A stretch of DNA of 64,000 nt. Origin: an uncultured Fibrobacterota bacterium (lineage in GTDB: Bacteria > Fibrobacterota > Chitinivibrionia > Chitinivibrionales > CAYFVL01). The stretch lies in contig CAYQOU010000003.1 in the NCBI GenBank assembly GCA_964419255.1, positions 1,417 to 65,416 on the forward strand, written 5' to 3'. Both the position numbers and the translations under genes were made by a program. How positions within the stretch are numbered: the stretch's first letter is position 1; each line of letters starts with the position of its first letter. Positions 2,237 through 26,400 of the stretch are shown here, in pieces. The notes below the pieces were generated by a model. The model was not told the origin of the DNA. It did not search any database and saw nothing but the letters and a program-made list of their open reading frames with translations.

Positions 2237-2831
2237 TAAAGGCTCACAACGGTATGATGCACTGCGGGAGAAAATCAAACAAGCCCGCAAATCAATCCAT
2301 GCGGCCTGGGAGCCGTCGAAAGAGGAGAGCCGCCAGCTTCTGCGTGAGCGCGCACGCGCTCTTGCAGCCAGACCTCCCGAGAAACCCGCCGACGATAAAA
2401 TCATGGAATTGCTGGTCTTTGAGCTGTCCGGAGAACACTACGGCCTGGAAACATCGTATATCGCTGAGGTTTTCTTTCTCGATGAATATACACCGCTTCC
2501 TTTCACGCCGGCATGGCTTGTGGGGATCTGTTCGCTGCGAGGGCGGTTCGTGTCGATCACCGACATTCGGGGAATTCTTGGGATGCCGATAAAAGGGATT
2601 GGAGAATTCAACAAGGTGATTCTGCTGCAGTCGCAAACAATGGAGTTTGGTATCCTTGCCGACGCGGTGGTTGGCATTCAAAATCTTCCGCAAAGGGATC
2701 TGCAGAAAGAATTCCATCTGCCCGGAGAACATGCGGAAAACTACATCGCCGGAGTCACCCCTTCTCGTCTGATCGTACTTGACAGTAAGAAACTATTAAC
2801 GGATGAAAAAATGATCGCCGGTACGGAGTAG
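2226..2831 (+). CDS. CheW-like protein with N-terminal extension (WspB/D-like)
   Basis: CheW domain (MELLVFELSGEHYGLETSYIAEV…LVGICSLRGRFVSITDIRGILG). GTG start overlaps the cheR stop by 11 nt, suggesting coupling. Confidence 0.8.
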   Translation: MAHSKGSQRYDALREKIKQARKSIHAAWEPSKEESRQLLRERARALAARPPEKPADDKIMELLVFELSGEHYGLETSYIAEVFFLDEYTPLPFTPAWLVGICSLRGRFVSITDIRGILGMPIKGIGEFNKVILLQSQTMEFGILADAVVGIQNLPQRDLQKEFHLPGEHAENYIAGVTPSRLIVLDSKKLLTDEKMIAGTE

Positions 2832-2880
2832 TCCGGATGCGATATGAAAAATGGACAACTATCAGGAAGGATGATGAGGT

Positions 2881-4356: not shown

Positions 4357-4357
4357 T

Positions 4358-6784: not shown

Positions 6785-6911
6785 GGGGATTTTTAATCAA
6801 AACAAACGAAGGTTACGCGCGAAAAGCCGGCTGCAATGTTTTTTCGCGAGAGTGTCATGGTTTACATATTTTCTCATTGCAGCTCAGATTTGTTATTTAG
6901 AAAGTAACGCA

Positions 6912-7961: not shown

Positions 7962-8016
7962 CATGGGATATGCTTCAAAGCGGTTTGGATACCTTCTATA
8001 GTGATATGGAGATCAA

Positions 8017-9762
8017 ATGAAACAAAAAGGTGGTCAACAGCAGCGATCGATTCTGATCGTTGAAGACAGTCCGACGCAGCGTGAGCGTCTGAGAATTCTT
8101 CTTCAGGATAAAAATTTTGACGTACATACCGCAAAAAACGGCGAAGAGGCGCTGGCAAAAGCACGTGAGCTGCGGCCGGAGGTGGTTGTCAGCGATGTTA
8201 TGATGCCGGTGATGAGCGGGTATGATCTGTGCCGAGCGATCAAGGATGATCCGCAGCTCAAGGATGTTACCGTTGTGCTTCTTACCGCTCTTTCCGATCC
8301 GCAGGACGTAATAAACGGGCTGACCAGCGGTGCCGATAATTTTATCACCAAACCGTATAGTGATTCGTTCCTTCTGTCACGAATAGAGTATATTTTTGTC
8401 AACAAAAGCATTCAACACGCCCGTATGAGTGATCTGGGAGTGGAGATTGTTTTTGGCGGAAAAAGACATCTGATCAATTCAAACCGTCTGCAGATAATCG
8501 ACCTGCTGCTTTCAACCTATGAGAATGCGATACAGAAAAACCATGAGCTTGACAGTGCCAATCGGGAGCTGGCCAGGACAAAGCAGGATCTGCAGTCTCT
8601 TAACACGCGGCTGCGCTCTCAAACCGACCAGCTTCAGTCTATATTGGAAAGCATATCCGATGGTGTGTTGGTGGTTACCCCCGATGGTAAGCCAGTTATC
8701 ATGAATCCGGCTGCCAGGGAGATGTCCGGAATCACCGATATTTCGGAGATTGAGGATTTTGAATCTCACGCTCACAGGCAGAAGTTTTTCGATGTAAACG
8801 ATCAGCCGGTACCATTCGAGCAGTGGCCCCATCGCAGGGCTTTACGAGGGGAAGAATTCACCGGTCTTCAATACCGAAGCCAAATCGCAGGTCAGAGAGA
8901 AACACGATTTCTGGAATTCAGCACCTCACTGATTCGTGATGCGGGAGGAGAAATCTCATCGGTGCTTATAACGGCACATGACATAACGCAGCAGAAACAC
9001 CATGAGGGGCGTCTGAGAGAGTCAAAACAGCTTGCCGAGCAACGCGCCGATGAGCTGGATGTGTCAAACAAAGAGCTGGAGTCCTTCTCCTATTCACTCT
9101 CCCACGATCTTCGATCCCCTCTTCATTCCATGAAATTGATTGCGGATTTGCTCAAGGATGATTACAGCGAGAACCTGGGGGAAGAGGGTAAACAGTACCT
9201 TGAACATATAGCAATGAACACCGATAAGATGAATGCCTTGATCGATGATATGTTGAGTCTGGCAAGAATAAGTCGGCAGGAGATGGAATGTTCACAAGTA
9301 GACCTGCGCAAAATTTCAGAAACGCTGATTTTTGAGCTGCAGCAGGCGGAGCCCCAGCGGAATGTGGACGTCAAGATGCATGGAACGCTCACTGCATTCT
9401 GTGATGAGCAACTGGTGAGAATCGCCCTGAGAAATTTACTGGGCAATGCCTGGAAATATACCGGTAAAACAGAGAATCCCCACATAGAAATCGGCTCAAT
9501 ATACCGAAACGGGGAAAACGTTTACTATGTGCGGGACAACGGCGCGGGGTTTTCCATGGACAATACAAAGGACCTGTTTAAGCCCTTTCAACGCCTTCAC
9601 CCGGAAAAAGAATTTTCAGGAACCGGTATCGGGCTCGCTATCGTAGAGCGTGTGATGGCCCGTCACGGGGGAAGAGTGTGGGCGGAGGGTGAAGTGGGAA
9701 AAGGGGCAACTTTCTATTTTACGTTGGCCAGAGCGCAAAATCATAACGAAGGTACGGCTTGA
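8017..9762 (+). CDS. Hybrid response regulator-PAS-histidine kinase (REC-PAS-HisKA-HATPase)
   Basis: REC (ILIVEDSPTQRE…VVVSDVMMPVMSGYDL…FITKP), coiled coil, PAS, H-box (SLSHDLRSPL) and the ATPase N/G boxes (NLLGNAWKY…RDNGAGF…GTGIGLAIV). Confidence 0.85.
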   Translation: MKQKGGQQQRSILIVEDSPTQRERLRILLQDKNFDVHTAKNGEEALAKARELRPEVVVSDVMMPVMSGYDLCRAIKDDPQLKDVTVVLLTALSDPQDVINGLTSGADNFITKPYSDSFLLSRIEYIFVNKSIQHARMSDLGVEIVFGGKRHLINSNRLQIIDLLLSTYENAIQKNHELDSANRELARTKQDLQSLNTRLRSQTDQLQSILESISDGVLVVTPDGKPVIMNPAAREMSGITDISEIEDFESHAHRQKFFDVNDQPVPFEQWPHRRALRGEEFTGLQYRSQIAGQRETRFLEFSTSLIRDAGGEISSVLITAHDITQQKHHEGRLRESKQLAEQRADELDVSNKELESFSYSLSHDLRSPLHSMKLIADLLKDDYSENLGEEGKQYLEHIAMNTDKMNALIDDMLSLARISRQEMECSQVDLRKISETLIFELQQAEPQRNVDVKMHGTLTAFCDEQLVRIALRNLLGNAWKYTGKTENPHIEIGSIYRNGENVYYVRDNGAGFSMDNTKDLFKPFQRLHPEKEFSGTGIGLAIVERVMARHGGRVWAEGEVGKGATFYFTLARAQNHNEGTA

Positions 9763-9950: not shown

Positions 9951-10580
9951 ATGACCACACTGATTGACCTGAGCCAGAAGATCCAGCATTCCATGCCGGT
10001 ATATCCGGGCGACAGCCCGGTGAATCTGTCCCGGGATCGCTCCCTGCACACAGACGGCTATACCTGCTTTCGGTTGGAATCGAACACCCACGCTGGAACT
10101 CATATCGATACCCCCATGCATCTTACCCAAAGCGCCAGCTATGTTCTGGATTATCCTCTCGAAAAATTCTTCGGACGGGGATGTCTGCTGGATGTGCGTG
10201 GAGAGGAGAGGATCGGGTATGCAGAGGAATATGAAGAGATAGTACAGGAAGGCGATATCGTGCTTGTCTTCACCGGGCGGGGGGAAACATTTTTGGACAG
10301 GGATTATTTCAAGAATTATCCCGTTATGGAAGAATCTCTCGTACGATTTCTGATCACGCGCAACATTAAGCTGCTTGGTCTCGATTCCCCATCTCCCGAC
10401 AGGTACCCCTTTGACATCCATAAGATCCTGTTTGAAAGTGGTATTCTGATTATCGAGAACCTGACAAATCTGGATGCCCTTCTCTCGGCAAAATCTTTCG
10501 AAATTATGGCCTTTCCCCTGAAAATCAGGGCTGATGCATCGCCGGTGCGTGTCGTGGCGCGGATGGAGAACGCGGGGTAG
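9951..10580 (+). CDS. Putative cyclase / arylformamidase (kynurenine formamidase) family protein
   Basis: HxGTHxDxPxH metal-binding signature (THAGTHIDTPMH). Size of 209 aa is typical of the family. Confidence 0.75.
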   Translation: MTTLIDLSQKIQHSMPVYPGDSPVNLSRDRSLHTDGYTCFRLESNTHAGTHIDTPMHLTQSASYVLDYPLEKFFGRGCLLDVRGEERIGYAEEYEEIVQEGDIVLVFTGRGETFLDRDYFKNYPVMEESLVRFLITRNIKLLGLDSPSPDRYPFDIHKILFESGILIIENLTNLDALLSAKSFEIMAFPLKIRADASPVRVVARMENAG

Positions 10581-10749
10581 TCACATACCTTTTCGCCACG
10601 GCGGTTCTCGTTTGTACCGCGGTTTTCCAAGCCCGCCATTGCCGATAATTGCACCAGAAGAATCTGATGGAAAAAGAAACAATTCCCATTTCTGGTACAC
10701 TATATGCTCCAAAAATTATTACTCGAACTCCTCTGATATAGAAAAAAGA

Positions 10750-11469
10750 ATGGTTTTTATGAATAGAGTCTCCCGACAACTGCTTCTTGCCTGGGGCATC
10801 GCGATGCTGAGTTGCGCAAGATACTTGGAAATGGGAAATTACAACCTGTCTATCTATCAGGATCTCCATTATAAAAAAGAAACGGTAAATAAGGAGAACA
10901 TGATCGTGGACCTGAATATAAAAGATCGGGACTGGGATCCCAAGAGACCCAACAAACGGGTCGGCTGGTGTGCGGAGGCCTGTATTCAGATGGCAATGGG
11001 GTATTACGGGGTGGAAATCACGCAAAAGGAGGTCAACAAGGCGGGCTCGCCTCGTCATGCGGACCTTTACATGGATGATATCGATGAAGCGCTTAAAAAC
11101 CTTTCGGTACATTTTGTCGCCTGGGACTATAACATACGAAATCTGGATGAGTTTATCGTATGGATCAAATCGATGCTCGAGAGAGGCTATCCGGTCATTT
11201 CGGGCGTAAAGATCTATCCCGACAAGTACCGTCGCTGGTTTCTGGATCATTTTGTTCTAGTGGTAGGCTACAGTAAAGAGGGGCTTCTCATTAATACCAA
11301 TATCAAAGGACAGCAGCTTATTTCGTATTCGCAGTTGAAATCATACAATCGGGGTTTTGCCATTAAAAACAGACACGATCGGTATTACGCACGCGCCATA
11401 ATCGGCCTGTCCAAGAAAAGCACTTCAGTTTCCGCCACCGACAGGTTATCGGGATTTACAATCGAATGA
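10750..11469 (+). CDS. Secreted C39-like (Peptidase_C39_2-type) papain-fold cysteine peptidase
   Basis: Signal-like N-terminus (MVFMNRVSRQLLLAWGIAMLSCA). Nucleophile context GWCAEACIQMAMGYYGVEITQKEVNKA and His context DHFVLVVGYSKEGLLINTN. The track ORF starts at 10534 and overlaps the previous gene, so I prefer the ATG at 10750. Confidence 0.65.
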   Translation: MVFMNRVSRQLLLAWGIAMLSCARYLEMGNYNLSIYQDLHYKKETVNKENMIVDLNIKDRDWDPKRPNKRVGWCAEACIQMAMGYYGVEITQKEVNKAGSPRHADLYMDDIDEALKNLSVHFVAWDYNIRNLDEFIVWIKSMLERGYPVISGVKIYPDKYRRWFLDHFVLVVGYSKEGLLINTNIKGQQLISYSQLKSYNRGFAIKNRHDRYYARAIIGLSKKSTSVSATDRLSGFTIE

Positions 11470-11542: not shown

Positions 11543-12952
11543 TCATTGTCCCGCGTCGAGATATGTCATCCTGCTGTCTTTTGACCAGTTTCCATTCAGT
11601 GCGGTTCTTTTCCAGACATAATTGGTCCGTTTTTCTATCTTACCCTTGTCATTCAACTGCACTACATACATTGAATCATATATCCAATCCCCTGTCTCGA
11701 GGTCCATAATCTCCGTAGTAATGATGGTGCTGTCGGAGTCGCCTCTTTCTCTGAAATGTACCAGTGGAAGCCATCTCTTTTTCTCCTTGTCATAGTACTG
11801 CTCTGCTTTGATCTTTATGCCGCACGAGGTGAGAGTATCGAAAGAGCGCACCTGTTCCCACTCTTCAGACTCGGCAAAATAGCCCCACTCAGTGGCTTTT
11901 TTGTCGGTAGAAATGTTGCAACGCTGATTTTCGTAATATAATAATTCCCACCTGCCTGTCGACCCGTCATATGTGAAGGTCGATTCCGCAATGGTAAATT
12001 GGTTCTGGTGCAGATGCCCTCTTTCCCATTTGTAAAAGGACCCTGATACCGGTTCTCCTTTTTTATCATAGCTTTTGTACATAACTCTGTGGCGAAGAGT
12101 ATTCCCGCTGTTATCTCTAAGTTCCGACTCCACATATACTGGAACAGGACGTTTGTTGATCAACTCGACGATACTGTCGTATGCCAGGCCGGCACTGTCT
12201 TTCATACTGAACAGCATTGCCGTGTTAGAAAGCCAGCCCTTTATTGAGCTGTCCCAATAATCGATGGTAAATGTTTGCATTATGCTGTCGCCGACCTGCC
12301 TGTATCGGCAGCGCTCCAAGGTCGTTTGTTTCGAATCTGAGCGCTTTGTATATGTATCCTCTACCCAGTTTGTTTTACCCTGCCAGGTGTTTTCTATTGT
12401 CTTAATTATCAAAACGCTGTCTCTGCCACTGTTGGAAACATCGTAAGACCTGTTGGTCATTTTGACAACTCTTCCCCGCTTATCATAAATAACACTGTCG
12501 CCGGCAACCCAGAAGCTGCGCATGGGATCCCACTGTGCGTTGTAAAGAACCACTCTGTTTCCCGACGCATTCGTCGTATCGATTCTTGCATTTGCTCCTC
12601 CGATTAGCTTCCAGTTACCGGTTTTATCCCACAGGTATATCAGCCCGGCAGTTTGATAGTGAAGATCGTCGTAGAGGAAACGTTCTAACCGATCTTTTTT
12701 CCATCGTAATCCGTTCCACCGCTCATGCAAAATGCCGATGCATTTACCATTTGAATCATGTGTGTGTGTTTGCCGATAATCGCTTGTCCAGCTAAAGCCC
12801 CTCCAGGCATCTTTAAGGATAACCTGCTGTCGGTGCGATTGAGGCAGCTCTCCAATGGCAGGGAGGTTGAGTACCATTAGTAGAGAAAAGATAACTGAAA
12901 GGGCCTGAAGGTTCATGCCGAAAGCAGCAAAGGTATGATAGGATTTTCTCAT
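11543..12952 (-). CDS. Secreted Trp/Tyr/Asp-rich repeat protein, paralog A (unknown function)
   Basis: Hydrophobic signal-like N-terminus. Clear paralogy to 19266-20681, for example ERWNGLRWKKDRLERFLYDDLHYQ vs EKWTGTKWVNDLWERFSYDDLHYP, and DSTIITTEIMDLETGDWIYDSMYVVQLNDKGKIEKR vs DSTIITADLFDVKTGKWTQDSMYIIHLNKHGKIVDK. I recognise no family. Confidence 0.7.
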   Translation of the reverse strand: MRKSYHTFAAFGMNLQALSVIFSLLMVLNLPAIGELPQSHRQQVILKDAWRGFSWTSDYRQTHTHDSNGKCIGILHERWNGLRWKKDRLERFLYDDLHYQTAGLIYLWDKTGNWKLIGGANARIDTTNASGNRVVLYNAQWDPMRSFWVAGDSVIYDKRGRVVKMTNRSYDVSNSGRDSVLIIKTIENTWQGKTNWVEDTYTKRSDSKQTTLERCRYRQVGDSIMQTFTIDYWDSSIKGWLSNTAMLFSMKDSAGLAYDSIVELINKRPVPVYVESELRDNSGNTLRHRVMYKSYDKKGEPVSGSFYKWERGHLHQNQFTIAESTFTYDGSTGRWELLYYENQRCNISTDKKATEWGYFAESEEWEQVRSFDTLTSCGIKIKAEQYYDKEKKRWLPLVHFRERGDSDSTIITTEIMDLETGDWIYDSMYVVQLNDKGKIEKRTNYVWKRTALNGNWSKDSRMTYLDAGQ

Positions 12953-13076: not shown

Positions 13077-13856
13077 TTACCACTTTGCCAGCCCGATTTT
13101 GAATCCGAATCTGCTTTTATTCTCATATTGCGGGAACCGATAATTAAATTCCGTCTGAATCTGCAGACCATTAAACACCATCATATTATATCCCAATCTC
13201 AGGGCATCTATTTCATAGCCCCGTTCATTTCCAAGAGGGTTGTTTCTGAAACGCTGATCGAAGCGCAGGTGGAGTTGTTGGCCGGCGATGAAGCTGTAGT
13301 AGAAACCGAGTTTCAATTCGGTCTCTGGTGCAAATACATGTTTCGGGCTCGATTCATCATGGGGTGTGGTGGTGTCATCCTCTGCCCAGGCCGTATCCCT
13401 TCCGGTCAACTGTTCAGCCGCCGAAAGGTAAAAACCCATAAACTGCTGATCCGGAGCCAGGTCGAAGTTGACCTCTACACCCGGGCTGGCGTAGAAATAG
13501 TAGTCGTATAATCCTACCTCCACCGTTACATCAAGAGAAAGAGGCAAATGCTTGTAAATCCCGGCTATCGATCCCATAAAAAAACCACCTGATCCTCCAC
13601 TGAAATATCTGTTTCCCTGAACGATTACTCCCATATACCCAGAAATAAAGCTGTTTAATCCCCGGCCTAAAATGGCAGTGCCGGTTGTCTTTGGTCCGAG
13701 TGAGCCGGGACCCAATTCCTGCAACCCAAGTTCAATTGAGAAATAATCGTTGTATTGATCGAAGGTTTCAATAGTGTTGAGTGAATATGCCTTTCCGGCA
13801 TTTGTCAAAATGGTCAGCATAGTGAAAACTGAAATGAGTGTTCTTATTCCGGTCAT
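13077..13856 (-). CDS. Small outer-membrane beta-barrel protein (putative)
   Basis: Signal peptide (MTGIRTLISVFTMLTILTNAGKAYS). Alternating hydrophobic/aromatic strands and a C-terminal aromatic signal (…FGFKIGLAKW). Confidence 0.6.
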   Translation of the reverse strand: MTGIRTLISVFTMLTILTNAGKAYSLNTIETFDQYNDYFSIELGLQELGPGSLGPKTTGTAILGRGLNSFISGYMGVIVQGNRYFSGGSGGFFMGSIAGIYKHLPLSLDVTVEVGLYDYYFYASPGVEVNFDLAPDQQFMGFYLSAAEQLTGRDTAWAEDDTTTPHDESSPKHVFAPETELKLGFYYSFIAGQQLHLRFDQRFRNNPLGNERGYEIDALRLGYNMMVFNGLQIQTEFNYRFPQYENKSRFGFKIGLAKW

Positions 13857-13934: not shown

Positions 13935-16900
13935 TTAATCAGTTGCCTGCAAATCAGCTCCCATATGAGGCTGCGACCGTGCAGGAATACCAAACCATGC
14001 AGTGGAGGAGGGAAGGGTCTCTCCTTTCATCACAAGTGACAAACCATCCAGAACAGTTCCCTTTCTAATGTGGGTATCATAAAGAACCACCGACATGGGC
14101 CCGATGGTCACACTGTCTTCAATATGTAAGTTAGACATCTTCATCACCCTGTCCTCAAACAGGTGGGTCTGAATCGTACAGCCGTAATTAAGCGTCGCAT
14201 TGTCACCGATTCGCACCAGGTCAAACTCGGTGATCTCCGTAGTCTCCATATACACATGCTTTCCGATCCTGCTGCCAAGCAGCCTGAAATAGGCAGGAAG
14301 AAAAGGGGTCCCCTGTATCATTTGCGTAAGCAGCGGGTATACCATATTCTCACACAGTGAGTTGATAAATTCATTTTTCCACAGATACAGGCTCCACAGG
14401 GGAATCTGAACCTGACGGTACCTGCCCACAAGAAGCCATTTAGCCACCACCGTAAGTAGCGCCAGCGCCAGTGATCCTCCAAAGATCACCAGCGGCGAAA
14501 AAAAGATGTACCATCGCAGTAACGCAACCGGTCCCAGAATTTCCGATACAAACCAATACGAGAGAATGTAGCAGCAGCTGGTCAGGGCCGCGGGCATGGT
14601 AATCTTGAAAAACTCGATTAGCCCCCGCAGAACAACCAGATAAGCCGGGGGGTCGAAGGTCAACCGCAGTTTGAATTTTTGACTCTCCTGGCGGTGAGGC
14701 AGAACCATGGGGGGAGAGCCCAGCCAGTTGGTGTTATTGATGATTTTCCGGCACGTGTCCTGTGGAGGTTTGGAAAGAACGCCGACAAGACAGTTGTCGC
14801 CGATGCGCGTGCCGATAGGAATAAGGGCACTGTTACCTATAAAGGAGCGTCTGCCTACTTCGGCTTTACCCACATACATCTTTCCTTTTCTCACAACCGT
14901 CGGGCCGACACTCGCGGAGTCGGCGATGAAACTGCCATCCCCCAGGCTCAACAGATCCGCACTGATATGATCCACGGTAGATATCTCCGCTCGTTTGCCT
15001 ATTTTTGCACCCAACAGCCGCAGCCAGTGCGGAAGATAAATAGTCGCATACAGCGGCTGTACCGTAAACAGACTCATTTGTACCAAAGTATCGACAAGCC
15101 ATTTCCGGATATACGTGATGCTGTATATGTCATAGCAGCTTTCTTTGTCGCAGGGGAATATGAGCTTCTTTATCCCCGCAACTGCCAGACAAAAGGATAT
15201 GGTGTAGGTCGCGGCCATGGGGATGGTGGCCGGAAGCGTATAGGCAAGGCTCGTGTTTACATAAAGATAAAAAGCTGCTACAATCCAGGGTAAAAGAAGG
15301 GCGCAAGGGATTATGACAGCCGATAAAAACGCACAGGCAAAGACTGTCAAATAGAAAATCGAAGCTTTGTTTCGACTCTTCTGCTCGATGTTTTCGGAAT
15401 TATTCGCTGCACCCATTGTTTTAGCCGCAGGGGAGCCCTCCCAGTATTCGCCTTCACCGACTATCATTCCCGAGGGAAGCAGCGCAAGTTCTCCCAGCTC
15501 CGAATGGTCCTTCATGACAGTGTTTTCATCCAGAACGGAACGAGTCCCGACCGTGCACTCTTGTCCTATGGCTATAGATCCGATGTGAAGCATTCCTCTG
15601 GTTACCCGATATGCCATTAGATGAGCATCCGCATTAATGGAGCTATTATCTCCAATAGATACGAGGTCACATACCCGGAACTTGTCAGATCCGATGTGAA
15701 CATTTTTGCCTATTCTTGCACCCATCAGTCTATAATACCAAACCAGAAACGGTGTACCTCGCATCATGCGGGTGGGTACCAGATCCATGAGACGACTGAC
15801 AAACCAGAATCGCAAATAAAAGAAACCCCACAACTTGTATACCCCGCTTTTGTATCGTCCGATCAGGAGCCATTTCGATATTATTGAAACGATCGTGAGC
15901 ACGGGAAGCAGTGCGAGCATTGAGACAAAGGACACCACCGCCCAGGCAACAACCCCGATAGCCGGATTAAACCAGTCGATAACAAAAGGTATGAGAAGCG
16001 GAGTTGAAAAAAGCATGAATATGGGATAAAGTGCGATTGCCTGGGAAGATCCGCAGAGGATAAATCTGAGCCACAGCAGCTTCTGTTCCTGGTCACTTGT
16101 GGCCGATTCTTTCGCCTCAATAGTGTGGGGCTGAAGAGAAAAGTTTTTCTCCACAGCCGCTGCCATCTCCTCTATGGTGCGGTATTGGTACATGTATTGA
16201 AGTGGAAGCTCCCCCATCCCCTGCTGCGTACGCAGCTCTGAAATGATGTTTGCCGCCAGTAAAGAATGGCCGCCGAGATCAAAGAAATTGTCTGTCACGC
16301 TAATGTCTTTACGATCAAAAAACTTTGCCCATGCCGCATGAATAGTTTTTTCAAGCCCGGTGCGCGGCTGCACTAACTTTATTTCCTCCCGCGTTTCCTC
16401 CACCTGAAGAGATGCCAGACGTTTCCGGTCAACCTTGCCACTGGGGAGAACGGGAAGCTCCTCCACCGAACAGAACTTCGAAGGTACCATATAGGAGGGA
16501 AGGAAACTGTTCAGCGCACTTTTCAGCCGCTTTTCATCTATATTCTTTCCTTTCTCCGACACCAAATATCCGACCAGCGATTGAATTCCCTGAGCATTGG
16601 TACTCAAAGCCACCGCCGCCTGAGAGGCATCGCAGGCTTTCACAAGCGCAGCCTCGATTTCACCCAGCTCTATACGCTGTCCCCGGAGTTTGATTTGACT
16701 GTCGATGCGTCCGCCAAACTCTAAGCTTCCGTCAGACGCAAAACGGGCTCGGTCTCCCGAACGGTACAAACGTTGGGGGAAGCCGTTACCTACTGTAAAC
16801 GGAGGCGTTACGAATTTTTTACTGGTAAGCTCCGGTCGGTTGAGGTACTCTCGAGCAAGACAGTGCCCACCGATACAAAGCTCTCCATACATTCCTTCCG

Positions 16901-18542
16901 GGACCGGCTGCAGGTTTCGGTCCAGAATGTATACGGCGTAGTTTGGCGCCGGCTTGCCGATGCCTGGTTTCATTTCCCGTATGCATTCACCACAAGTGGC
17001 TATCACTGTTGCTTCTGTCGGACCATAGGTGTTGTATATCTTCCTTTTACCGTCAAGCCACGGTTCGATGGCTCTCAGATGACACTCTTCACCGCCAAGA
17101 ATAAGTATCCGAACCGATTCCGCCGGCGTCTGCATCATCGATATCTGCGTCGGTACCGTGGAAAAGACAGTGATTTTTTCCGTTTGAAGAAACGTGACTA
17201 GATCCGGCCCGGAAAGCGCTTCCGCTTTGGTGGCGGCAACAAGCACCGCCCCACTGTACCAGGCAAGCCACATCTCCTCCACCGAAGCATCGAAAGATAT
17301 TGAAAAGCCCTGATAGATCCTGTCGCGATTATTCACGCAAAAGAGATTGCTTTCGCCACCAATGAGATTGGATACGGTTTTGTGCATAAGCACAACACCT
17401 TTGGGTTTGCCGGTTGTTCCTGATGTATAGATGATGTACGCCGGATCATCCGGTACCACACCAGTCTCTTCGGGAAGAAGATTGTGGGTGCTAAACGCCT
17501 TCAGACATTCGGGAAAATCTTCCACGCAAACACATTCGCAAGACAGCTGATTTTTATTTTTCAGCTGTGTATCGGTTATGACCAGCCTCGCTTGGGCATC
17601 ATCCAGTATATACCCGATACGCTCGGCGGGAGATCGTGGGTCTATTGGCACGTAAGCCGCCCCAGCCTTGAGAACACCCATGATTGCGATAAAAACATCC
17701 AAAGCTCGGGGAAGCAGGATTGCGATAAAATCACCCGTATTGACGCCATGGGACCTGAGATAGCGTGCCAGAGCATTGGCCTTTATGTTGAATTCATCAT
17801 AGGTGAGTTCGTTTCCCATACAACGCAGAGCAGGATTGTCGCCAAAAGCATTTACGGTGTGCTCGAACAGCTGGTGAAGACACTGCGGTTGCGCAATTAC
17901 AGGGTCGACCAGCGATACACTCCACTGATCTAATGTCTCTTGTTCCTGTCTGGAAAGCAGAGGAAGCAGAGAAATGCTTTGATCGGGCTCAGAAAACATA
18001 TGAGAAAAGAGAATCGAGAAATGTTCCGTCCACCGTTTCAGATAATGGTCGGATGATGTCGAGTCCAGGGAACTGACTATAATATTACCATCGAGAGATA
18101 TCTCAAACAGGGCGGTGATATTTCCAGAGGAATTGTCACCTGAGCTATACAGGCAATAAAACGGCTCAAGAAGTCTGGCTGGTGCAATATTATCGAAATG
18201 CACCCCGTTTATTTCTAAAGCCGATGATACCCTGTCAACAAGGCCGGAGGCGGTGACCTGATCGTCAAGAGGTAGCTCCAGAGAAAACAGCGGGGCCGAA
18301 ATCAGATTTTTTTTAACATGAAGGACTATCTGAAACTGTTCTTCATTTTGATAACGGTAAACAAGCCCCGCAAATGTCGCGATAAGAACAGCATTAAGAG
18401 AAACGTTGTGTTTCTGTGCGTAAAGTTGAGTTGCCGATATGGGGTCGGGGGAAATTATATTGAAATCAAAATCAAAATCGATGGCCTGTGTATCTTTTTT
18501 GTTGATAGCATGGTGTGCGATTTCTGTAATGTGTGCATCCAT
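13935..18542 (-). CDS. Membrane-bound NRPS-like homopoly(amino acid) synthetase, Pls-type (A-T-[2TM + hexapeptide-repeat domain]x3)
   Basis: Adenylation core motifs (YIIYTSGTTGKPKGV, FDASVEEM, NTYGPTE, GELCIGG, YRSGD, GRIDSQIKLRGQRIELGEIE, PSGKVDRK). PCP motif FFDLGGHS (Ser codon 16263-16265). There is no canonical C or TE domain. The C-terminal 700 aa hold three blocks, each with hydrophobic helices followed by a hexapeptide-like domain (RLMGARIGKNVHIGSD…, LRLLGAKIGKRAEIST…, FRLLGSRIGKHVYMETT…). Confidence 0.85.
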   Translation of the reverse strand: MDAHITEIAHHAINKKDTQAIDFDFDFNIISPDPISATQLYAQKHNVSLNAVLIATFAGLVYRYQNEEQFQIVLHVKKNLISAPLFSLELPLDDQVTASGLVDRVSSALEINGVHFDNIAPARLLEPFYCLYSSGDNSSGNITALFEISLDGNIIVSSLDSTSSDHYLKRWTEHFSILFSHMFSEPDQSISLLPLLSRQEQETLDQWSVSLVDPVIAQPQCLHQLFEHTVNAFGDNPALRCMGNELTYDEFNIKANALARYLRSHGVNTGDFIAILLPRALDVFIAIMGVLKAGAAYVPIDPRSPAERIGYILDDAQARLVITDTQLKNKNQLSCECVCVEDFPECLKAFSTHNLLPEETGVVPDDPAYIIYTSGTTGKPKGVVLMHKTVSNLIGGESNLFCVNNRDRIYQGFSISFDASVEEMWLAWYSGAVLVAATKAEALSGPDLVTFLQTEKITVFSTVPTQISMMQTPAESVRILILGGEECHLRAIEPWLDGKRKIYNTYGPTEATVIATCGECIREMKPGIGKPAPNYAVYILDRNLQPVPEGMYGELCIGGHCLAREYLNRPELTSKKFVTPPFTVGNGFPQRLYRSGDRARFASDGSLEFGGRIDSQIKLRGQRIELGEIEAALVKACDASQAAVALSTNAQGIQSLVGYLVSEKGKNIDEKRLKSALNSFLPSYMVPSKFCSVEELPVLPSGKVDRKRLASLQVEETREEIKLVQPRTGLEKTIHAAWAKFFDRKDISVTDNFFDLGGHSLLAANIISELRTQQGMGELPLQYMYQYRTIEEMAAAVEKNFSLQPHTIEAKESATSDQEQKLLWLRFILCGSSQAIALYPIFMLFSTPLLIPFVIDWFNPAIGVVAWAVVSFVSMLALLPVLTIVSIISKWLLIGRYKSGVYKLWGFFYLRFWFVSRLMDLVPTRMMRGTPFLVWYYRLMGARIGKNVHIGSDKFRVCDLVSIGDNSSINADAHLMAYRVTRGMLHIGSIAIGQECTVGTRSVLDENTVMKDHSELGELALLPSGMIVGEGEYWEGSPAAKTMGAANNSENIEQKSRNKASIFYLTVFACAFLSAVIIPCALLLPWIVAAFYLYVNTSLAYTLPATIPMAATYTISFCLAVAGIKKLIFPCDKESCYDIYSITYIRKWLVDTLVQMSLFTVQPLYATIYLPHWLRLLGAKIGKRAEISTVDHISADLLSLGDGSFIADSASVGPTVVRKGKMYVGKAEVGRRSFIGNSALIPIGTRIGDNCLVGVLSKPPQDTCRKIINNTNWLGSPPMVLPHRQESQKFKLRLTFDPPAYLVVLRGLIEFFKITMPAALTSCCYILSYWFVSEILGPVALLRWYIFFSPLVIFGGSLALALLTVVAKWLLVGRYRQVQIPLWSLYLWKNEFINSLCENMVYPLLTQMIQGTPFLPAYFRLLGSRIGKHVYMETTEITEFDLVRIGDNATLNYGCTIQTHLFEDRVMKMSNLHIEDSVTIGPMSVVLYDTHIRKGTVLDGLSLVMKGETLPSSTAWFGIPARSQPHMGADLQATD

Positions 18543-19265
18543 ATGCCAAATCCTTTGTTGCGAAATGTAATGATGGCCTTAAACAGAATCGATAATGAAA
18601 ACTGGCGTATCCTCCGGCAGATCTTTGGAGACAAAGAGAAATGTTCGTTCTGCCGGTGGCGTTTAATAAAAAAACCAGACATAGCTGGTATTAAGTAAAC
18701 CAAATATCGCACCAGAGAGTATGCATCTGGTTTTATTACAGGACATAAATGGTTGACTATAGCGGGTAAGCGGATCAATAGAGAAACCGAATTGGGCATT
18801 GTACCGATTAAAAAGGGCAAATGCTGAATGTAAAAAAGCGCACAATATGAGTGGCGCTATTTCGCCAAAAAAGAATGGCGTGTTTATCATGTCATCGGTA
18901 AAACAAAAGACTTAATCATTTTGAAAAGGATAGGTGTCAAGAAGCATAGAGTTGGGAAATGTAAGTATGCAGAACAGCTGGGGCATTAAAGGAGATCTGT
19001 GTGTTTTGCGCCTTTTTCTCTCAGCACATGAAGCGTGACGGGGTAAAAAAGGCAACTTTCTCGAGGTGCTTTTCTAAGATAGTTTTCTTTTCTAACAGTC
19101 GACCTGCGATACCAGTATATCCGCCAATTCTGAAGGACAAGGAAAACAGTCTGTAAAACGAAAGGTTTACAGAACCAGAGATAAGGGTTTCAGGAAAAAA
19201 TCCTTAGTTTTAAAGTGGATGATAGGTTTTAAACTTAACCTTTATAAAGAATAGTTGATATAAAA

Positions 19266-20681
19266 CTATCTATTTGGATCCTTGTATATAATTCGTCTGT
19301 ATTTTTGCCAGCCATTTGAAAGGGCGTCTTCCGCAGTTCTGGTATAGATGATCTTATCTACTATTTTACCGTGTTTGTTTAGATGTATTATGTACATCGA
19401 ATCCTGAGTCCATTTGCCTGTTTTTACATCAAATAGGTCAGCGGTTATTATGGTGCTGTCCTGTTGTCTGTTTTCTGAAAAGGTAATCAGCGGTATCCAC
19501 TCCCTTTTTGATGAATCGAAATATTTGCGTCCCTTTATCTTTAAGCCGTAAGGGGTGATGAAATCAAACTGCCTGGTCTGCCCCCATTTTCCGGTTTCTT
19601 TGCCGTAGTATCCCCATTCATCTATGCCCAAATCGGAGGAGATATCGCGCGTCTGCCTGTAATAGTGCAGCAGTTTCCATCCTGACACTTCAAGGGTATA
19701 TGTCGACTCGGCTACGGTATACTGGTGTTTGTCGGGGTTATATTTACGCTTCCAAATGTAGTGAATTCCTGTATGGCCGTCGCGTGAGTCTCCGGAAAAA
19801 TTCAGACATAACCGGTGTGTCAACAGGTTGCCCCGTTCGTCTCGTTTTACAAGCTCTACATACAGAGGCGTAACACCACTATCTCTTAATTCCACCAGGC
19901 TGTCGTACACAATGCCGGCACTGTCCTTTACCCGAAAAAGTTTCGCTTTATCCACGAGCCATGCTTGGCTCTCTTCATCCCAGTAATCTACGGAAATGGT
20001 ACTAAGCTCCCGGGATATCGAATCACTGTTTTCCCGATACTGTCTGCGTGTCGCAGTCGTTTCCCGGGTATCGGAGCGCCAGATGGTACTGTTTTGAATC
20101 CACCGGGCATCATTACTCCAGCTGTTTTCGGTAGTATAAATTATTGTGGTAGTATCCCATCCGTATTGAGACGAAATGGTTTGGGTGATAACCCGCTTCT
20201 TTACCCTGTCGTAACTGTCATACACGGTAAGATCTTCGGCACACCACCTCTTTTCTGCCGCATCCCATGCCGCATCCCGCAGCACTACCCTGTTTCCCAC
20301 GATATCGATTGTATCGATCTCTTTACGCGTGCCCTCTATCATCCTCCAGCCACTGTCCTGAAACCACCTATACACTAGCCAGCTAACCGGGTAGTGAAGA
20401 TCATCATAGGAGAATCGCTCCCATAGGTCATTAACCCATTTTGTACCAGTCCACTTCTCATGCATGATACTGATGCACTGACCGGAGGTGTCAAAGGTAT
20501 AGGTAAGGCGTACATCACTACACCAATGGTAGGTGTTCCACTTCTCCTTTACAACTATACTCTGTCTAAACAATCCGGTAGTGCTGCCCGTGGTATGAAA
20601 AACTATGCCTTGCAGAAAAAAAAGTATGAAAACGAATAGACGATGTACAGAGGCAAAAGTAAAGGATGAGCGTGTATTCAT
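19266..20681 (-). CDS. Secreted Trp/Tyr/Asp-rich repeat protein, paralog B (unknown function)
   Basis: Paralog of 11543-12952 along the full length. I prefer the ATG at 20681 (MNTRSSFTFASVHRLFVFILFFLQG, signal-like) to the track start at 20762. Confidence 0.7.
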   Translation of the reverse strand: MNTRSSFTFASVHRLFVFILFFLQGIVFHTTGSTTGLFRQSIVVKEKWNTYHWCSDVRLTYTFDTSGQCISIMHEKWTGTKWVNDLWERFSYDDLHYPVSWLVYRWFQDSGWRMIEGTRKEIDTIDIVGNRVVLRDAAWDAAEKRWCAEDLTVYDSYDRVKKRVITQTISSQYGWDTTTIIYTTENSWSNDARWIQNSTIWRSDTRETTATRRQYRENSDSISRELSTISVDYWDEESQAWLVDKAKLFRVKDSAGIVYDSLVELRDSGVTPLYVELVKRDERGNLLTHRLCLNFSGDSRDGHTGIHYIWKRKYNPDKHQYTVAESTYTLEVSGWKLLHYYRQTRDISSDLGIDEWGYYGKETGKWGQTRQFDFITPYGLKIKGRKYFDSSKREWIPLITFSENRQQDSTIITADLFDVKTGKWTQDSMYIIHLNKHGKIVDKIIYTRTAEDALSNGWQKYRRIIYKDPNR

Positions 20682-21085
20682 GGTTTTTCCCCTGAAGGTC
20701 ATATGATGATAACGGGATATGCGCCGTTTTATGTCCTGCTTCGCCATGTTCTTGTAGTCCAAAAATCAGACCAGTGAGCGGGGTAACGGGTAAGGCAAAA
20801 TTGCAAAACACAGAGTAGATTGAGCTATAAATTCCTCAAACCAACTTCAAATCACAATTTTTGCGCTTAAAAGAAGGATGGCGCCGGATTGATAAAATGC
20901 GCATGCGCGAAAGTGAAAAAGGTGGGAAAGAGAAGGGGTGATAAGCAAGAATGGGGAGTCTGCACAGGAAAATAGCAGCTCCGGCATTATGAGATGAAAT
21001 AACCGCCTTGTAGATGCGTCTGTGCAGAGAGGAATACTTTTTCGCACGAATGAACAGAAACAAATCTACCCGCGGCACATCATTT

Positions 21086-22069
21086 TCATCCTGAAAAGGA
21101 GTCCCTTTTTTGTGAAGCTCGGAACAGCCGATCGTTTATGGCTCTCCCCAGACCGGTGTCGGGAACTGATGTCGCGACTATTAGATCCAGATGAGCAGCA
21201 TCGAGCCGCTTGAGCGCGGAAAAAAGATTACAGGCGGCTTCCGAAAGATCCTCGGTCGGCGAGAGGTTCTCGACTCTATGAAAAAATGCATCTTCAACCG
21301 GCTTGCCTATGGTCAGCAGTCCCATGCGCTTGCCTTCCGGCAGCTCGGTGATGGTGTCGGTTAGTATCAAAGGAGTGCCGGGAGCATAATGTCTGCTGAA
21401 CCGTCCAGGGGAGGCATGCTTGAGCTCATCGCGCTCGGGAACATGTACGGTCCCGATTATTTCCTCTATATCCTCCAGAGCAATACCCCCTGGCCGCAGC
21501 AGGGTAGGCCTTGATTCCATAAAGGAGACAATGGTTGATTCAACTCCCACATCGCAGCATCCACCATCGATTATCAGATCCACCGCATCGCCAAGATCTG
21601 CTCTGACATGATCGGCACAGGTAGGACTGATACAGCCAAAGGAGTTGGCACTGGGAGCAGAAATCGCTGCGTGGGACGAGTTGATCAACTCCAGGGCAAT
21701 CGGATTATCAGGCATGCGGATTCCAACTCCGGGGAGGCCCGCGGTGACCAGGTCGGGAATCGAGGACCTTTTTCTTACAATCATGGTCAAAGGGCCGGGC
21801 CAGAATTGGTCCATGAGCCTTCGTGCCTCCGGCGGTATCTCGGCAGCAACATGCTCAGCCTGATCGGGAGAGCCGATATGCACAATCAGCGGATCGAATT
21901 CGGGACGTTTCTTTATGGCGAAAATCTTTGCCACTGCCTGTTCATTGCGTGCATCTGCTCCAAGTCCGTATACCGTCTCGGTGGGAAATGCAACCGTTCC
22001 CCCGGAAACAATTATGGAAGCTGCTTTCTCAATTATTCTGTTCACTGTACTCTCCACTGGTTTTCTCAC
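21086..22069 (-). CDS. tsaC: L-threonylcarbamoyladenylate synthase, long Sua5 form (YrdC domain + Sua5 C-terminal domain)
   Basis: YrdC/Sua5 signature (GGTVAFPTETVYGLGADA, …SAPSANSFG…). The 327-aa length fits the two-domain form. Confidence 0.85.
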   Translation of the reverse strand: MRKPVESTVNRIIEKAASIIVSGGTVAFPTETVYGLGADARNEQAVAKIFAIKKRPEFDPLIVHIGSPDQAEHVAAEIPPEARRLMDQFWPGPLTMIVRKRSSIPDLVTAGLPGVGIRMPDNPIALELINSSHAAISAPSANSFGCISPTCADHVRADLGDAVDLIIDGGCCDVGVESTIVSFMESRPTLLRPGGIALEDIEEIIGTVHVPERDELKHASPGRFSRHYAPGTPLILTDTITELPEGKRMGLLTIGKPVEDAFFHRVENLSPTEDLSEAACNLFSALKRLDAAHLDLIVATSVPDTGLGRAINDRLFRASQKRDSFSG

Positions 22070-22604: not shown

Positions 22605-23468
22605 ATGGATAACGTATTGAATCAGGCTCAGATCGAAGAGTGTAAAAGCCGTTTTAATTTGACCTATCATGTTTCTTATGCCGCCATGTGCCGAAAAATG
22701 GCGGGATTTGCCGGAAAGGATGTTCTGGAGGTAGGAGGAAGCCTTCCTCCAGAATTTGTATTCGACTATCTGAAGGTCAGAACCTGGACCGCTATGGAAA
22801 CTCCTGAATATGATCAGGCACTCAAAGAAACCGGTGGAATCACTCACAAGGGGACAATCCTGGGAAATGAAGGCATGGACTATGTGCCGGGAGCTGATAC
22901 TATCATCAAGGAAAATTATCGTTTTATTTACGGCAATATCGAGGAGCTGTCAGAGCGGCTTTACGAGCAATTCGACCTGATTTTCTCGATAGCAACATTC
23001 GAACATATCCATAAGATGCCGATGGCTCTGGAACAAATGTATAATGCTCTAAAAGCCGACGGAAAGGTGTTTAGCATGTTTTCACCGGTATGGTCATCCT
23101 TTGACGGCCATCACCTGCCCAAGATTACCGATATTGATGGAAAGAGCTACAATTTTGGGAATAGCCCGATACCTGCCTGGGGACATTTACTCATGGGGCC
23201 GGCGGAGATGTATGAATACCTGTGCACAAAAACCGACAAGGTGACAGCCGCACACATGGCCTATTATGTATACAACTCAACGCACATCAACCGATTCTTT
23301 GTGGAAGACTATATACGGTTTTTCTCGCTGAGTCCCTTTACTGTGGAAACCTGTAATCTTACATTTCCCGCCAGCATGCCTCCGGGGATGCAAAAAAGAT
23401 TGCAAGAGCTATTTCCGGGGAAAAAGCATTTCGCATACAATGGCATTCTGGTTATTCTAAAAAAATAG
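22605..23468 (+). CDS. Putative class I SAM-dependent methyltransferase
   Basis: Motif I-like GKDVLEVGGSLPPE and motif post-I/II-like FDLIFSIATFEHI…LKADGKVF. This is a weak assignment by eye. Confidence 0.5.
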   Translation: MDNVLNQAQIEECKSRFNLTYHVSYAAMCRKMAGFAGKDVLEVGGSLPPEFVFDYLKVRTWTAMETPEYDQALKETGGITHKGTILGNEGMDYVPGADTIIKENYRFIYGNIEELSERLYEQFDLIFSIATFEHIHKMPMALEQMYNALKADGKVFSMFSPVWSSFDGHHLPKITDIDGKSYNFGNSPIPAWGHLLMGPAEMYEYLCTKTDKVTAAHMAYYVYNSTHINRFFVEDYIRFFSLSPFTVETCNLTFPASMPPGMQKRLQELFPGKKHFAYNGILVILKK

Positions 23469-23479
23469 TTGCAAGTTGA

Positions 23480-26400
23480 TTATTTGACTGAAAGCTGTTC
23501 AAAAATCTCCTCTATTTGATCTACCGAACGCTTGATGTCGAAGGTGTCGAAAGCACGTTTTTGCCCCTGCCTTCTGAGTCGGTCCCAAAGAGGATGATCG
23601 TGGTGCAGAGTAAGCAGTTTTCCTGTGAGCGAGAGGTGATCGCCCGATTTAAACACCAGTCCCGATTGCATGTCCTGTACAATCTCAGCGGCTCCACCGG
23701 TTGCACTCGTGATTACACATGCCCCGGAAGCCATCGCTTCAACCTGGCTGATACCGAATGCCTCCGAAACCAGGGAGGGAAAGACCAGTACATTATGGCT
23801 TTTGTACATCCTCACCAGCTCATCCCGCGTGAGATTGCCGGTGAAATGCACCTGATTTGACAGTCCTGCACGGGCACATATCCTCTTGAGATTCTCAACG
23901 AAAGTCATGTCCGTGCTGGTGCCGGCGATCGTCGCACTGAAGGGTATTCCACGCGACTCGAGTTCGAGGAGCGCCTTTATTAAAATCTGCGGTCCCTTGT
24001 AGGGGAGAACGATGCCGGCATAGGCAATGGATAGCGAGCCGGGTTCTTCCAGGTCAGCCTGGTAGAACCTGTCGACCAGCGCTCCGGGGTAGATGACGTC
24101 GATGTGCTTGAGCGGATAGCCTTTTCGCCATATCTCGTCCCGAAGCCATCGACTGGCTGTCGCGAGTCGGTAGAGGGGATCTCCCGGTGACTGCTCCGGT
24201 GGATATCCCGGTTGTGGATTACCCAGATGCTGTAAAACCGGTACGCGACGGTTGATAAGTTCAAAAATCAGATCTGCACCAATGAAATCAGCATTTCCAA
24301 ACAGGCACACATCGGGTTTGTATGCTTGCAGTGCAGCATTGAGAGTGTGAACATTCTTCTCAATAACCTGCCTCACCACCTCAGCATCGAAAGAGTTGGT
24401 GATACCGTTTTTCCATTCACCAAACAATTCCAGATCTCTCGATATGTCCTTTTCTTCCGAAGGCGCTTGTCCCAGATAGGCTGTATCAGAGGTTAATACC
24501 TGTACCTGATAACCGCGGCCGCGCAACAGTTCGGTAAAATCGAAAAGCAGTCTGCCATAGCCACCCAGCTCCTGCGGTGGGAACAGGTTATTGATGATCA
24601 GTATCCGCTGGGCAGCTGTGCCTTTGGATAATCGTCCTTTTTGTGGAGCAGTATGTTGCAGGTGCTCGACTGCAGCCTTAATGTGGAGCTGATCGGCCTT
24701 GAGTCGGAGTGATTGACGAAATGTTTCAAGCGCCTGGTGTGTAGAAGAGATTTCCAGAAACAGATTTCCCAACATATTCAGGTAATCCACTCTTTCGGGA
24801 AACAGCGCTGTGAGTCGTTGGAGGTAGGGAATCGCTTTGGTCACTAGACCTGCTGCGCAGTAGTGATCAACGGTTGACAAAAGAAGCGTTTTATCTTTGG
24901 GTGAGATAAACACAGCCTGCTCCAAAAGCTCCCCGGCCGTTTCTTTATCTTGAAATCGATACGCTAACAGACCAAGAATATGGATACGTTTGCCGTCGGA
25001 TGTGTTGCCGGTAAGCTGCGAACGCAAGGTCGACAACAAATCGACCGGCGAGAAAGAGGTGAGCAGTATGCTGAGAAAATCAGAGTAATTTTTCCATTGC
25101 CATATCTGTGGGTTATTCTGAAACTTCTCCAATCCTGCGGATATTAATGATTCTTCGCATTTGTCGCAGCATTCACCCAAAAGGGCAATCCGCAAGGACG
25201 GATAGGTATGAATCAGCCTTGCGATATAATCTTCTTCCCAATCGCCCGGTTTAATTACCAACAAATCCCACAATTTTTTTGTTTCCGGATTAATTTCGAT
25301 GTGAGCACCAGTGGTACCGTCGTATTGATGCTCCTCGAGGAAGGCTGCCCAGCTGATCGGATCGTTAGTATCGATACCCATGTTCAGACGCGGTAGATCG
25401 TGACAGTCATCTATCAGGTGCCGGTCGGCTTCCGAGGCGAAGCAGACCAGAGGGGTCGGACTCTGCAGATGCAGCTCCTGAATATGCTCATATAATGAGA
25501 CGCGTTCGTAAAGGCTCCGAAAAGATGATGTGTGAATGTGAGCACGTTTGTCTCGCTCTATTTTATATTCAGGTGTCAGATCTCCCCCAAAGACGCAACT
25601 GAACAATTCTTGGGCTTTTTGTTCGGGGCGATGTTTTTCCCAGAATTTTTGTTTGCCCGCTCTTGATATTTTCTCTCTTTGACCGGAATTTTCCATGTAG
25701 AACTGGATTAGCTGCTGCAGATCCGACGGACTTTTATAGGTGCGAAGATGCACGCCATCCTCAAACAGCAGATCGAGTCCTGATTCTTTGCTCAGTTGAT
25801 CGGTAAGAAGAAAGCCACCGCTTGAAAGCACTTCAAAGATACGGAGATTCATATCCCCGTTGAGGCTGCAGTTTAGATTTATTTTAGATTCGGCATATAC
25901 TTGCGCGGCCTTTTGCTGTGGCAGCTGCATATGCTCTACCGCTTGACTTTTTTTACGGAGATAATCAAGAACATATCTTCGGTATGGATGCCATTGCGCC
26001 GTCTGGCCGATAAAGCTTACAGAGTGTTTGTACTCCATAACCTCCGGCTGTGGGTGGGGAAAGACATTGAAGCCGGGTATCCAGTGCACATTTCGAAAAC
26101 CCGCCTCACAGAAGTAATGCAGGTGATGCCGCTTGTGATCAGTTATTACCCAGTCAAACTTCTCCTGTCGTGCGTAGTCAAGAAGCATCCGCAGGGGGCG
26201 ATTGAGATGTTGAGTATTTCCGAGGATCAGTACCTTCGGACATGGTGCACTTCTCAGACCAACGGGAAAATTGCGTGCAGTTGCATCTGCTTTGATAATG
26301 ATAACATCTGGTTGTTGATTGGGCGGCAGCGTTTTTATAACAGGTTCGATGGAATATACCCCTGATGGTGTGCGAAAGCTTTTTATCATCGACTGGTGTT

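Follow-up and report, generated by a model that had tools for sequence, protein, structure and literature searches.

A Pls/PosA-family synthetase with a lysine-type specificity code and its conserved gene neighbourhood in Fibrobacterota

Epsilon-polylysine and its relatives are antimicrobials in commercial use, and the characterised synthetases of such polymers are, to our knowledge, a handful, mainly from actinomycetes, plus PosA. The closest described systems are Pls of Streptomyces albulus (BAG68864; adenylation-domain structure 7WEW) and PosA, the delta-poly-L-ornithine synthetase of Acinetobacter baumannii (ATY43264; structures 8G95-8G98). Both consist of an adenylation and carrier (A-T) module followed by a six-transmembrane (TM) domain with three tandem repeats. 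The Streptomyces pls gene is flanked by genes for Pld metallopeptidases. PosA reportedly has no co-transcribed neighbours (PMC10522769). Here we analysed a pls-like gene (13935..18542, minus strand) within a 64-kb stretch of DNA, termed the window, from a member of the Chitinivibrionales in the diderm phylum Fibrobacterota.

The window enzyme resembles Pls in the A-T module and the six-TM domain with three tandem repeats that follows, in the lack of a functional condensation (C) or thioesterase (TE) domain, and in nine of the ten positions of the specificity code, with Asp1, Ala2 and Glu3 the same. It differs from Pls in its diderm Fibrobacterota host, in an additional N-terminal half-condensation-domain of about 200 residues, and in its accessory genes for a predicted outer-membrane (OM) barrel, a papain-fold lipoprotein and YD-like proteins. 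PosA shares the architecture and a diderm host, and is the top Protein Data Bank (PDB) match for the substrate-pocket segment of the window enzyme, whereas its code carries Met2, which goes with ornithine (Orn) specificity, in place of Ala2, and the N-terminal extension is missing. In an alignment with an optical character recognition (OCR) copy of the PosA sequence, the two enzymes are collinear over residues 214-1526 of the window enzyme with 33.6% identity; PosA begins at about residue 196-214 of that enzyme and has no half-C domain.

The overall best explanation, to which we assign a probability of about 0.65, is that the gene encodes an inner-membrane, single-module synthetase of the Pls/PosA type, probably producing polylysine, that works within a conserved envelope module. 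Little is new at the enzyme level: the family and the exact specificity code are already catalogued, and standard annotation would name the protein. The cassette of barrel, papain-fold and YD-like genes with a shared promoter-like motif, next to a synthetase resembling nonribosomal peptide synthetases (NRPS), makes the locus, together with the half-condensation-domain, a system-level variant that appears to be undescribed in the searchable literature. No description of accessory or export genes for Pls, or of a Pls cryo-EM structure, turned up in the literature searched.

Architecture and specificity code of the synthetase

The gene is a single open reading frame (ORF), for which the coordinates are exact, and is divided as follows.

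13935..18542, minus strand: pls-like gene, encoding a 1535-aa homopoly(amino acid) synthetase of the Pls/PosA family
17913..18542, minus strand: remnant of the C-terminal lobe of a C domain with the C-A linker (aa 1-~210), without the HHxxxDG lobe
16434..17867, minus strand: adenylation (A) domain (aa 226-703), code DAESIGTVIK
16152..16346, minus strand: peptidyl carrier protein (PCP, or T) domain (aa 733-797; PF00550), with the phosphopantetheine attachment motif FFDLGGHS
13980..16043, minus strand: C-terminal polymerisation domain (aa 834-1521), three times a TM pair and then a left-handed beta-helix (LbH) hexapeptide repeat

The product is a member of the known Pls/PosA family. NCBIfam and Pfam scans placed AMP-binding (PF00501) at residues 226-567, AMP-binding_C (PF13193) at residues 628-703 and the amino-acid adenylation model TIGR01733 at residues 247-644. 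TIGR02353, named "Pls/PosA family non-ribosomal peptide synthetase", matched residues 834-1521 over the full model (positions 3-695 of 695) with 624.5 bits against the curated cutoff of 423.1. Hexapeptide-repeat (Hexapep) matches were also found, and no condensation, thioesterase or reductase family matched above threshold in these scans.

The C-terminal domain is built of three repeats (aa 827-1055, 1056-1300 and 1301-1535), which match one another in pairwise blastp with E-values of 9e-19, 5e-29 and 9e-11 and carry the motifs RLMGARIGK, LRLLGAKIGK and FRLLGSRIGK in register. Hydropathy and charge-free-segment analysis identified six uncharged hydrophobic segments in three pairs (835-855/860-889, 1060-1095/1097-1124 and 1314-1333/1344-1367), each pair directly ahead of one soluble repeat. 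Because Lys/Arg-rich stretches (SKWLLIGRYK, KKLIF and AKWLLVGRYR) follow TM2, TM4 and TM6, the positive-inside rule would place the three beta-helix repeats in the cytoplasm, on the same side as the A-T module. The predicted topology agrees with the published Pls/PosA architecture (PMC10522769). A sequence search of solved structures gave for this domain weak LbH matches only, to gamma-carbonic-anhydrase and acyltransferase structures, and found no solved structure of a Pls-type C-terminal domain.

Thus a single A domain, a single carrier domain and a Pls-type architecture ending in TIGR02353, as proposed in the original prediction from the DNA sequence, were all recovered, together with the three repeats of hydrophobic helices and hexapeptide-like domains and the expected six TM segments around them. 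That prediction had also stated that canonical C and TE domains are lacking; this holds for families above threshold, but the remnant of half a C domain at the N-terminus had been overlooked.

Residues 1 to about 210 have no Pfam match. A profile of 20 homologous N-termini (A1), searched against the PDB, matched McyB (E 8.6e-17, in an alignment that takes in the C-A linker) and residues 237-449 of SrfA-C (E 8e-6), as well as the C domains of TycC, TomB, surfactin and bacitracin synthetases, with the C-terminal lobe only (C-domain residues ~237-450). The lobe bearing the catalytic HHxxxDG motif is absent from the N-terminus. Motif positions and codes were counted over the 120 best homologues in the database, among them named proteins from Bacteroidota, Verrucomicrobiota and Fibrobacterota. 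The A3 motif lies at about residue 325-440 in homologues with the extension and at about 120-195 in those without it, and homologues of about 1340 residues lack it. The remnant is the mark of a large subgroup and is common to many Bacteroidota and Fibrobacterota homologues. We infer that it might be a non-catalytic relic of a C-A-T ancestor that still serves the A domain as a structural platform, which would hint at an origin of the single-module family from a canonical C-A-T module.

The ten Stachelhaus positions read DAESIGTVIK both from MAFFT columns and from direct alignment to the A-domain structures of Pls and PosA, the same code that had been read by eye. The lysine-type assignment had originally been drawn from an 8/10 match to a bacitracin code for lysine; the comparison with the experimentally characterised Pls now gives 9/10 identity to DAESIGTVVK, the single difference being Ile instead of Val at position 9. 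When the 141-aa pocket segment was searched against the PDB with phmmer, PosA (8G95-98) scored 99 bits and Pls (7WEW) 92 bits, followed by the next NRPS with 63 bits and GrsA-PheA with 49.5 bits; the alignment gave nine positions as DAESIGTVV for Pls and DMEHNGTVS for PosA. Published codes are DAESIGTVVK for Pls, with lysine established by experiment, DMEHNGTVSK for PosA (Orn), DFECLSAVTK for the diaminobutyrate (Dab) enzyme, DFEYVGTVTK for the diaminopropionate (Dap) enzyme and DGESVSVVNK for the beta-lysine enzyme (PMC10522769). Asp1 and Glu3 bind the two amines of the diamino acid, and mutagenesis showed that position 2 tunes the side-chain length, with Ala for Lys, Met for Orn and Phe for Dap or Dab (PMC10522769). 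The window code starts with D-A-E, having Asp1 and Glu3 as the diamino-acid rule demands and the Ala2 of a Lys-type pocket. The lysine call is well founded because of the 9/10 identity to an experimentally verified code, and the monomer is quite probably L-lysine. Epsilon linkage and polymer length are not predictable from sequence, and epsilon-poly-L-lysine is the most likely product.

The nearest Pls homologues are encoded in Fibrobacterota metagenome-assembled genomes (MAGs; 62-67% identity) and in a Chitinispirillaceae MAG (58%). In a genome scan, homologues with 38-49% identity occurred in Bacteroidota, Verrucomicrobiota, Planctomycetota, Acidobacteriota, Myxococcota, Cyanobacteria and one Methanosarcinaceae MAG. 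Among the 120 best homologues, 102 have the identical code DAESIGTVIK, and the others have DAES[IV]G[ST]V[IV]K. An Acidobacteria homologue with the exact code DAESIGTVIK has been listed as a predicted lysine user (PMC10522769 Suppl. Table 2), and a published survey of the family lists Proteobacteria, Bacteroidetes, Planctomycetes and cyanobacteria. A diderm host had been put forward as new context. Given the characterised Acinetobacter PosA, the survey and the spread of homologues, with lysine-code homologues in many diderm phyla, a diderm host in itself is not new.

The conserved gene block, its partner proteins and a promoter-like motif

The genes around pls that might belong to the same module are the following.

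13077..13856, minus strand: predicted 12-stranded OM beta-barrel; 259-aa secreted protein with the C-terminus ...GLAKW, 78 nt downstream of pls
11543..12952, minus strand: YD/RHS/DUF3836-like repeat protein; 469 aa, secreted, all-beta, with ~50-aa repeats, after a gap of 124 nt from the barrel gene
10759..11469, plus strand: papain-fold cysteine peptidase (Peptidase_C39_2-like), convergent, with a lipoprotein-like signal ...AMLSC
19266..20762, minus strand: 498-aa paralogue of the 469-aa repeat protein (40% identity), lying upstream of pls and probably starting at an internal Met (M21 or M28)

The genes for the barrel and the repeat protein share the strand of pls and are separated by short intergenic gaps, and NCBI lists the products of these two genes downstream of pls as hypothetical proteins of a Chitinivibrionales MAG. 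We surveyed the neighbourhoods of 89 loci with pls homologues (L numbers) by hmmsearch with profiles of the three partners, namely the barrel, the repeat protein and the C39-like protein. All three were found in every Fibrobacterota-clade locus. The order of the block in relatives is pls, a gene for ~250-276 aa, a gene for ~450-471 aa and then the convergent C39-like gene; it is kept in seven distinct Fibrobacterota-clade loci (L001/L012, L002, L003/L004, L005/L006, L010, L011), whose Pls proteins are 58-67% identical to that of the window. Among the Fibrobacterota-clade loci whose called genes were listed, the genes flanking the block are wholly different. Two loci with more distant Pls homologues, L008 (49% identity) and L032 (43%), also have a barrel gene directly after pls, followed by a phytochelatin-synthase-like gene (PF05023), which belongs to another papain-fold family. 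Our main argument for a functional linkage of the cassette to pls is that the pairing of a barrel with a papain-fold protein recurs with different family members and different flanks. In 20 of the loci of other phyla that lack all three partners, a gene for an Sfp-type 4'-phosphopantetheinyl transferase (PPTase; PF01648/PF22624) lies near the pls homologue, in most of them directly downstream (L014-L017, L020, L021, L025, L026, L031, L037, L046, L047, L055, L056, L060, L064, L071, L074-L076).

The 259-aa protein has a signal peptide and a C-terminus, GLAKW, that resembles an outer-membrane beta-signal, and no Pfam or NCBIfam family matched it. An AlphaFold2 model from 11 sequences shows an antiparallel barrel, with a predicted local distance difference test (pLDDT) score of 71 and a predicted template modelling (pTM) score of 0.62. 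The best PDB matches of this model in Foldseek were 12-stranded barrels, namely FapF, NanC (TMq 0.62), KdgM (TMt 0.85-0.86) and autotransporter beta-domains, and the 14-stranded OmpG, with E-values of about 1e-7. The protein is thus predicted to be a 12-stranded outer-membrane barrel, and, being syntenic with pls across lineages, it would be a candidate for the host's own outer-membrane partners that the original prediction had supposed. Its likeness to FapF (amyloid subunit secretion), to NanC and KdgM (porins for acidic oligosaccharides) and to autotransporter beta-domains is one of predicted fold, at 7-15% identity and with no detectable sequence family for the window barrel; the cargo proposed here is a polycation, in contrast to the acidic sugars or proteins handled by FapF, NanC and KdgM. 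A Pfam hint at the C-terminal barrel of PelB (E 0.048) was not significant and was not used.

The papain-fold protein matches PF13529 and PF03412 in Pfam and, weakly, BtrH_N. Cys146, His239 and Asn279 (numbering of the 311-aa ORF, alignment A5) are invariant; the Cys and His lie in the contexts GWCAEACIQMA and DHFVLVVGY, and most orthologues have a lipoprotein-like signal. The ORF as listed (10534-11469, plus strand, 311 aa) begins before the preceding cyclase/arylformamidase-like gene (PF04199; 9951-10580, plus strand) has ended. Since orthologues have 180-250 aa, the most likely start is M76 at nt 10759. A conserved Cys/His pair is what the protein has in common with Peptidase_C39/C39_2, phytochelatin synthase and BtrH. 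The C39 domains of bacteriocin systems are fused to an ABC exporter, whereas the window enzyme has no such fusion and would be a small lipoprotein-like protein predicted to be periplasmic.

Both the 469-aa and the 498-aa proteins are secreted, Trp/Tyr-rich and all-beta, with a Trp-rich repeat of about 50 aa. A profile of the repeat protein searched against 1.84 billion representative proteins found about ten full-length relatives and about 1500 proteins with several matches each to the ~50-aa repeat. Eight relatives were sampled, of which six, distant and multi-repeat, have tails for the type IX secretion system (T9SS), and five of these six also have RHS_repeat and/or DUF3836; the 469-aa protein has no T9SS tail of its own. 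Because the distant relatives carry RHS_repeat/DUF3836 and T9SS sorting domains, both proteins are assigned by sequence as YD/RHS-like hairpin-repeat proteins typical of the surfaces of the Fibrobacteres-Chlorobi-Bacteroidetes (FCB) group. The ~50-aa Trp-rich repeat family itself appears to be unnamed. The AlphaFold2 model of the 469-aa protein, made from three sequences, was poor (pLDDT 50), and with a Foldseek TM of about 0.1 it was readable only as all beta-hairpins.

Upstream of pls and of the upstream paralogue lie copies of a motif with the spacing of a sigma54 promoter, a type defined by GG at -24, GC at -12 and a fixed distance between them and dependent on an enhancer-binding protein.

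18700..18714, minus strand: promoter-like motif TGGTGCGATATTTGG, 158 nt upstream of the pls start codon, with sigma54-like -24/-12 spacing
20759..20773, minus strand: second copy TGGTCTGATTTTTGG, just upstream of the 498-aa paralogue
16562-16576, minus strand: third copy, inside the coding sequence of pls, with a counterpart at the corresponding place in L001

With GG-N10-G, the motif TGGNNNGATNTTTGG is spaced like a -24/-12 promoter, and it matches the window three times against 0.10 expected; its 15-nt form is TGGNNNG(A)TNTTTGG. In an alignment of seven orthologous pls leaders it is the sole strongly conserved block, being invariant. Every clade locus (L001-L012, L050) has a relaxed form of it ahead of pls, at a distance of about 165-200 nt, whereas the other loci gave only three scattered matches, in three of them. 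A scan for a lysine riboswitch or another known RNA found none at gathering thresholds in the whole window, the 720-nt pls leader included, with chance-level matches only in 18400-19400, and generic sigma70 and terminator scans gave no enrichment worth interpreting.

Proposed mechanism and competing explanations

Domain evidence and homology to characterised members support an enzyme that would activate a diamino acid, load it as a thioester and polymerise it through the side-chain amine in the membrane domain. The A domain would adenylate L-lysine and transfer it to the carrier domain, onto its phosphopantetheinyl arm. Six TM segments and three cytoplasm-facing beta-helix repeats make up the C-terminal domain, which might then repeatedly move the lysyl thioester to the side-chain amine of free lysine or of the growing chain, giving an isopeptide-linked polylysine, a polycationic antimicrobial polymer. 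In this scheme, the half-condensation-domain would be structural and non-catalytic. The 12-stranded OM barrel may pass the polycation over the outer membrane, the papain-fold lipoprotein may shorten or break down the polymer within the envelope, by analogy with the Pld peptidases encoded beside pls in Streptomyces, and the YD-like proteins might bind or shield it; these roles of the partner proteins are put forward tentatively. The module is seemingly driven by the shared sigma54-like promoter motif.

More broadly, it is conceivable, if still doubtful, that Fibrobacterota and a few other diderm lineages combine a polylysine-type synthetase with a dedicated and co-regulated apparatus, consisting of a new family of 12-stranded OM channels, an isopeptide-cutting or -transferring papain-fold lipoprotein and YD/RHS-like proteins under sigma54-like control. 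If true, this would describe for the first time how a Gram-negative bacterium exports a membrane-active polycation of its own making and stays protected against it. The locus offers a concrete candidate answer to how a diderm producer might move a membrane-disrupting polycation out and control chain length or self-toxicity, the candidates being the small barrel and the papain-fold lipoprotein that recur beside pls in several lineages.

Several observations weigh against a polylysine synthetase within an envelope module. The whole A domain scores generic NRPS domains above Pls (274 bits), the diderm clade with the code DAESIGTVIK has no characterised member, and codes are imperfect predictors, as the code of PosA was nearest to a Lys domain and yet the enzyme uses Orn (PMC10522769). 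An enzyme of the same family might accordingly use L-ornithine, D-lysine, beta-lysine or a modified (e.g. hydroxylated) lysine, or might make a short oligomer rather than a 25-35-mer. Position 9 (I vs V in Pls), an identity to PosA of just 33.6%, and linkage and chain length being set by an uncharacterised C-terminal domain would allow for this. We consider another monomer or product quite improbable in view of the Ala2 found in all Lys enzymes, instead of Met, Phe or Gly, the 9/10 identity to the verified Pls code and the clearly different code of the beta-lysine enzyme. The -12 element of the motif is GG and not the canonical GC, although the spacing and the TGG...TTG core fit sigma54, and the window ORFs that were scanned included no enhancer-binding protein; for both reasons the sigma54 assignment is tentative. 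Furthermore, the 64-kb window contains no PPTase gene, and the activating PPTase must therefore be encoded elsewhere.

As to the partners, the barrel, repeat and C39-like proteins were not found by hmmsearch in about 70 loci of other phyla. They are not generally required, because most homologues of other phyla, including most diderm ones, do without the cassette and PosA does without co-transcribed neighbours. The synthetase might then work alone like PosA, with the barrel, repeat proteins and peptidase being unrelated envelope genes that are adjacent through genome kinship. No family annotation links these partners to polyamino acids, and a look for an acidic lumen as a signature of polycation transport gave a mixed picture: strand-phase analysis found 9 acidic and 7 basic conserved lumen-facing charges, with no clear cation-selective signature. 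Nevertheless, we regard a synthetase working alone as fairly unlikely. The block persists while the genes on either side change, the gaps are short with the barrel and repeat-protein genes on the pls strand, the pairing of barrel and papain-fold genes recurs at 43-49% identity with another papain-fold family, and the upstream paralogue has the same promoter-like motif as pls. Alternatively, the polymer could be kept or anchored on the envelope as a surface polycation, for matrix or adhesion; the papain-fold enzyme would then be a transpeptidase, and the YD-like proteins would form scaffolds on the surface. Papain-fold families do include transferases acting on gamma-glutamyl (isopeptide-type) bonds, such as phytochelatin synthase and, by its weak match, BtrH_N, and distant relatives of the repeat proteins are T9SS-sorted surface proteins. 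However, characterised members of the synthetase family release soluble polymers (PMC10522769) and the 469-aa protein has no T9SS tail, and we give retention on the envelope a low probability. The inner-membrane synthetase within a conserved envelope module remains the explanation we prefer.

Flanking genes

In some relatives, genes related to iron lie close to the block. An encapsulin (Linocin_M18) and rubrerythrin pair is found just past the C39-like gene in L002 and L003, and in L001 genes for ferritin/rubrerythrin and Fur occupy that position. These relatives may share a recurring neighbourhood for iron or oxidative stress, which was not seen in the window.

Upstream of the block, the window carries a trio of genes encoding a Sua5/TsaC protein (21086-22069, minus strand), a class I methyltransferase (22605-23468, plus strand) and a 1023-aa fusion of TPR and a GT4 glycosyltransferase (23480-26551, minus strand). 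The trio is syntenic in L001 (67% identity), where genes for MlaE, an ABC ATPase and MlaD, and then DnaJ, come after it. At the other end, a chemotaxis-type cluster occupies 560-9762 on the plus strand, with genes for a CheR-like protein (560-2236), a methyl-accepting chemotaxis protein (2881-4356), a CheA-like protein with the domains Hpt-HATPase-CheW-REC (4268-6784) and CheB (6852-7961), followed by a REC-PAS-histidine kinase hybrid (8017-9762, plus strand).

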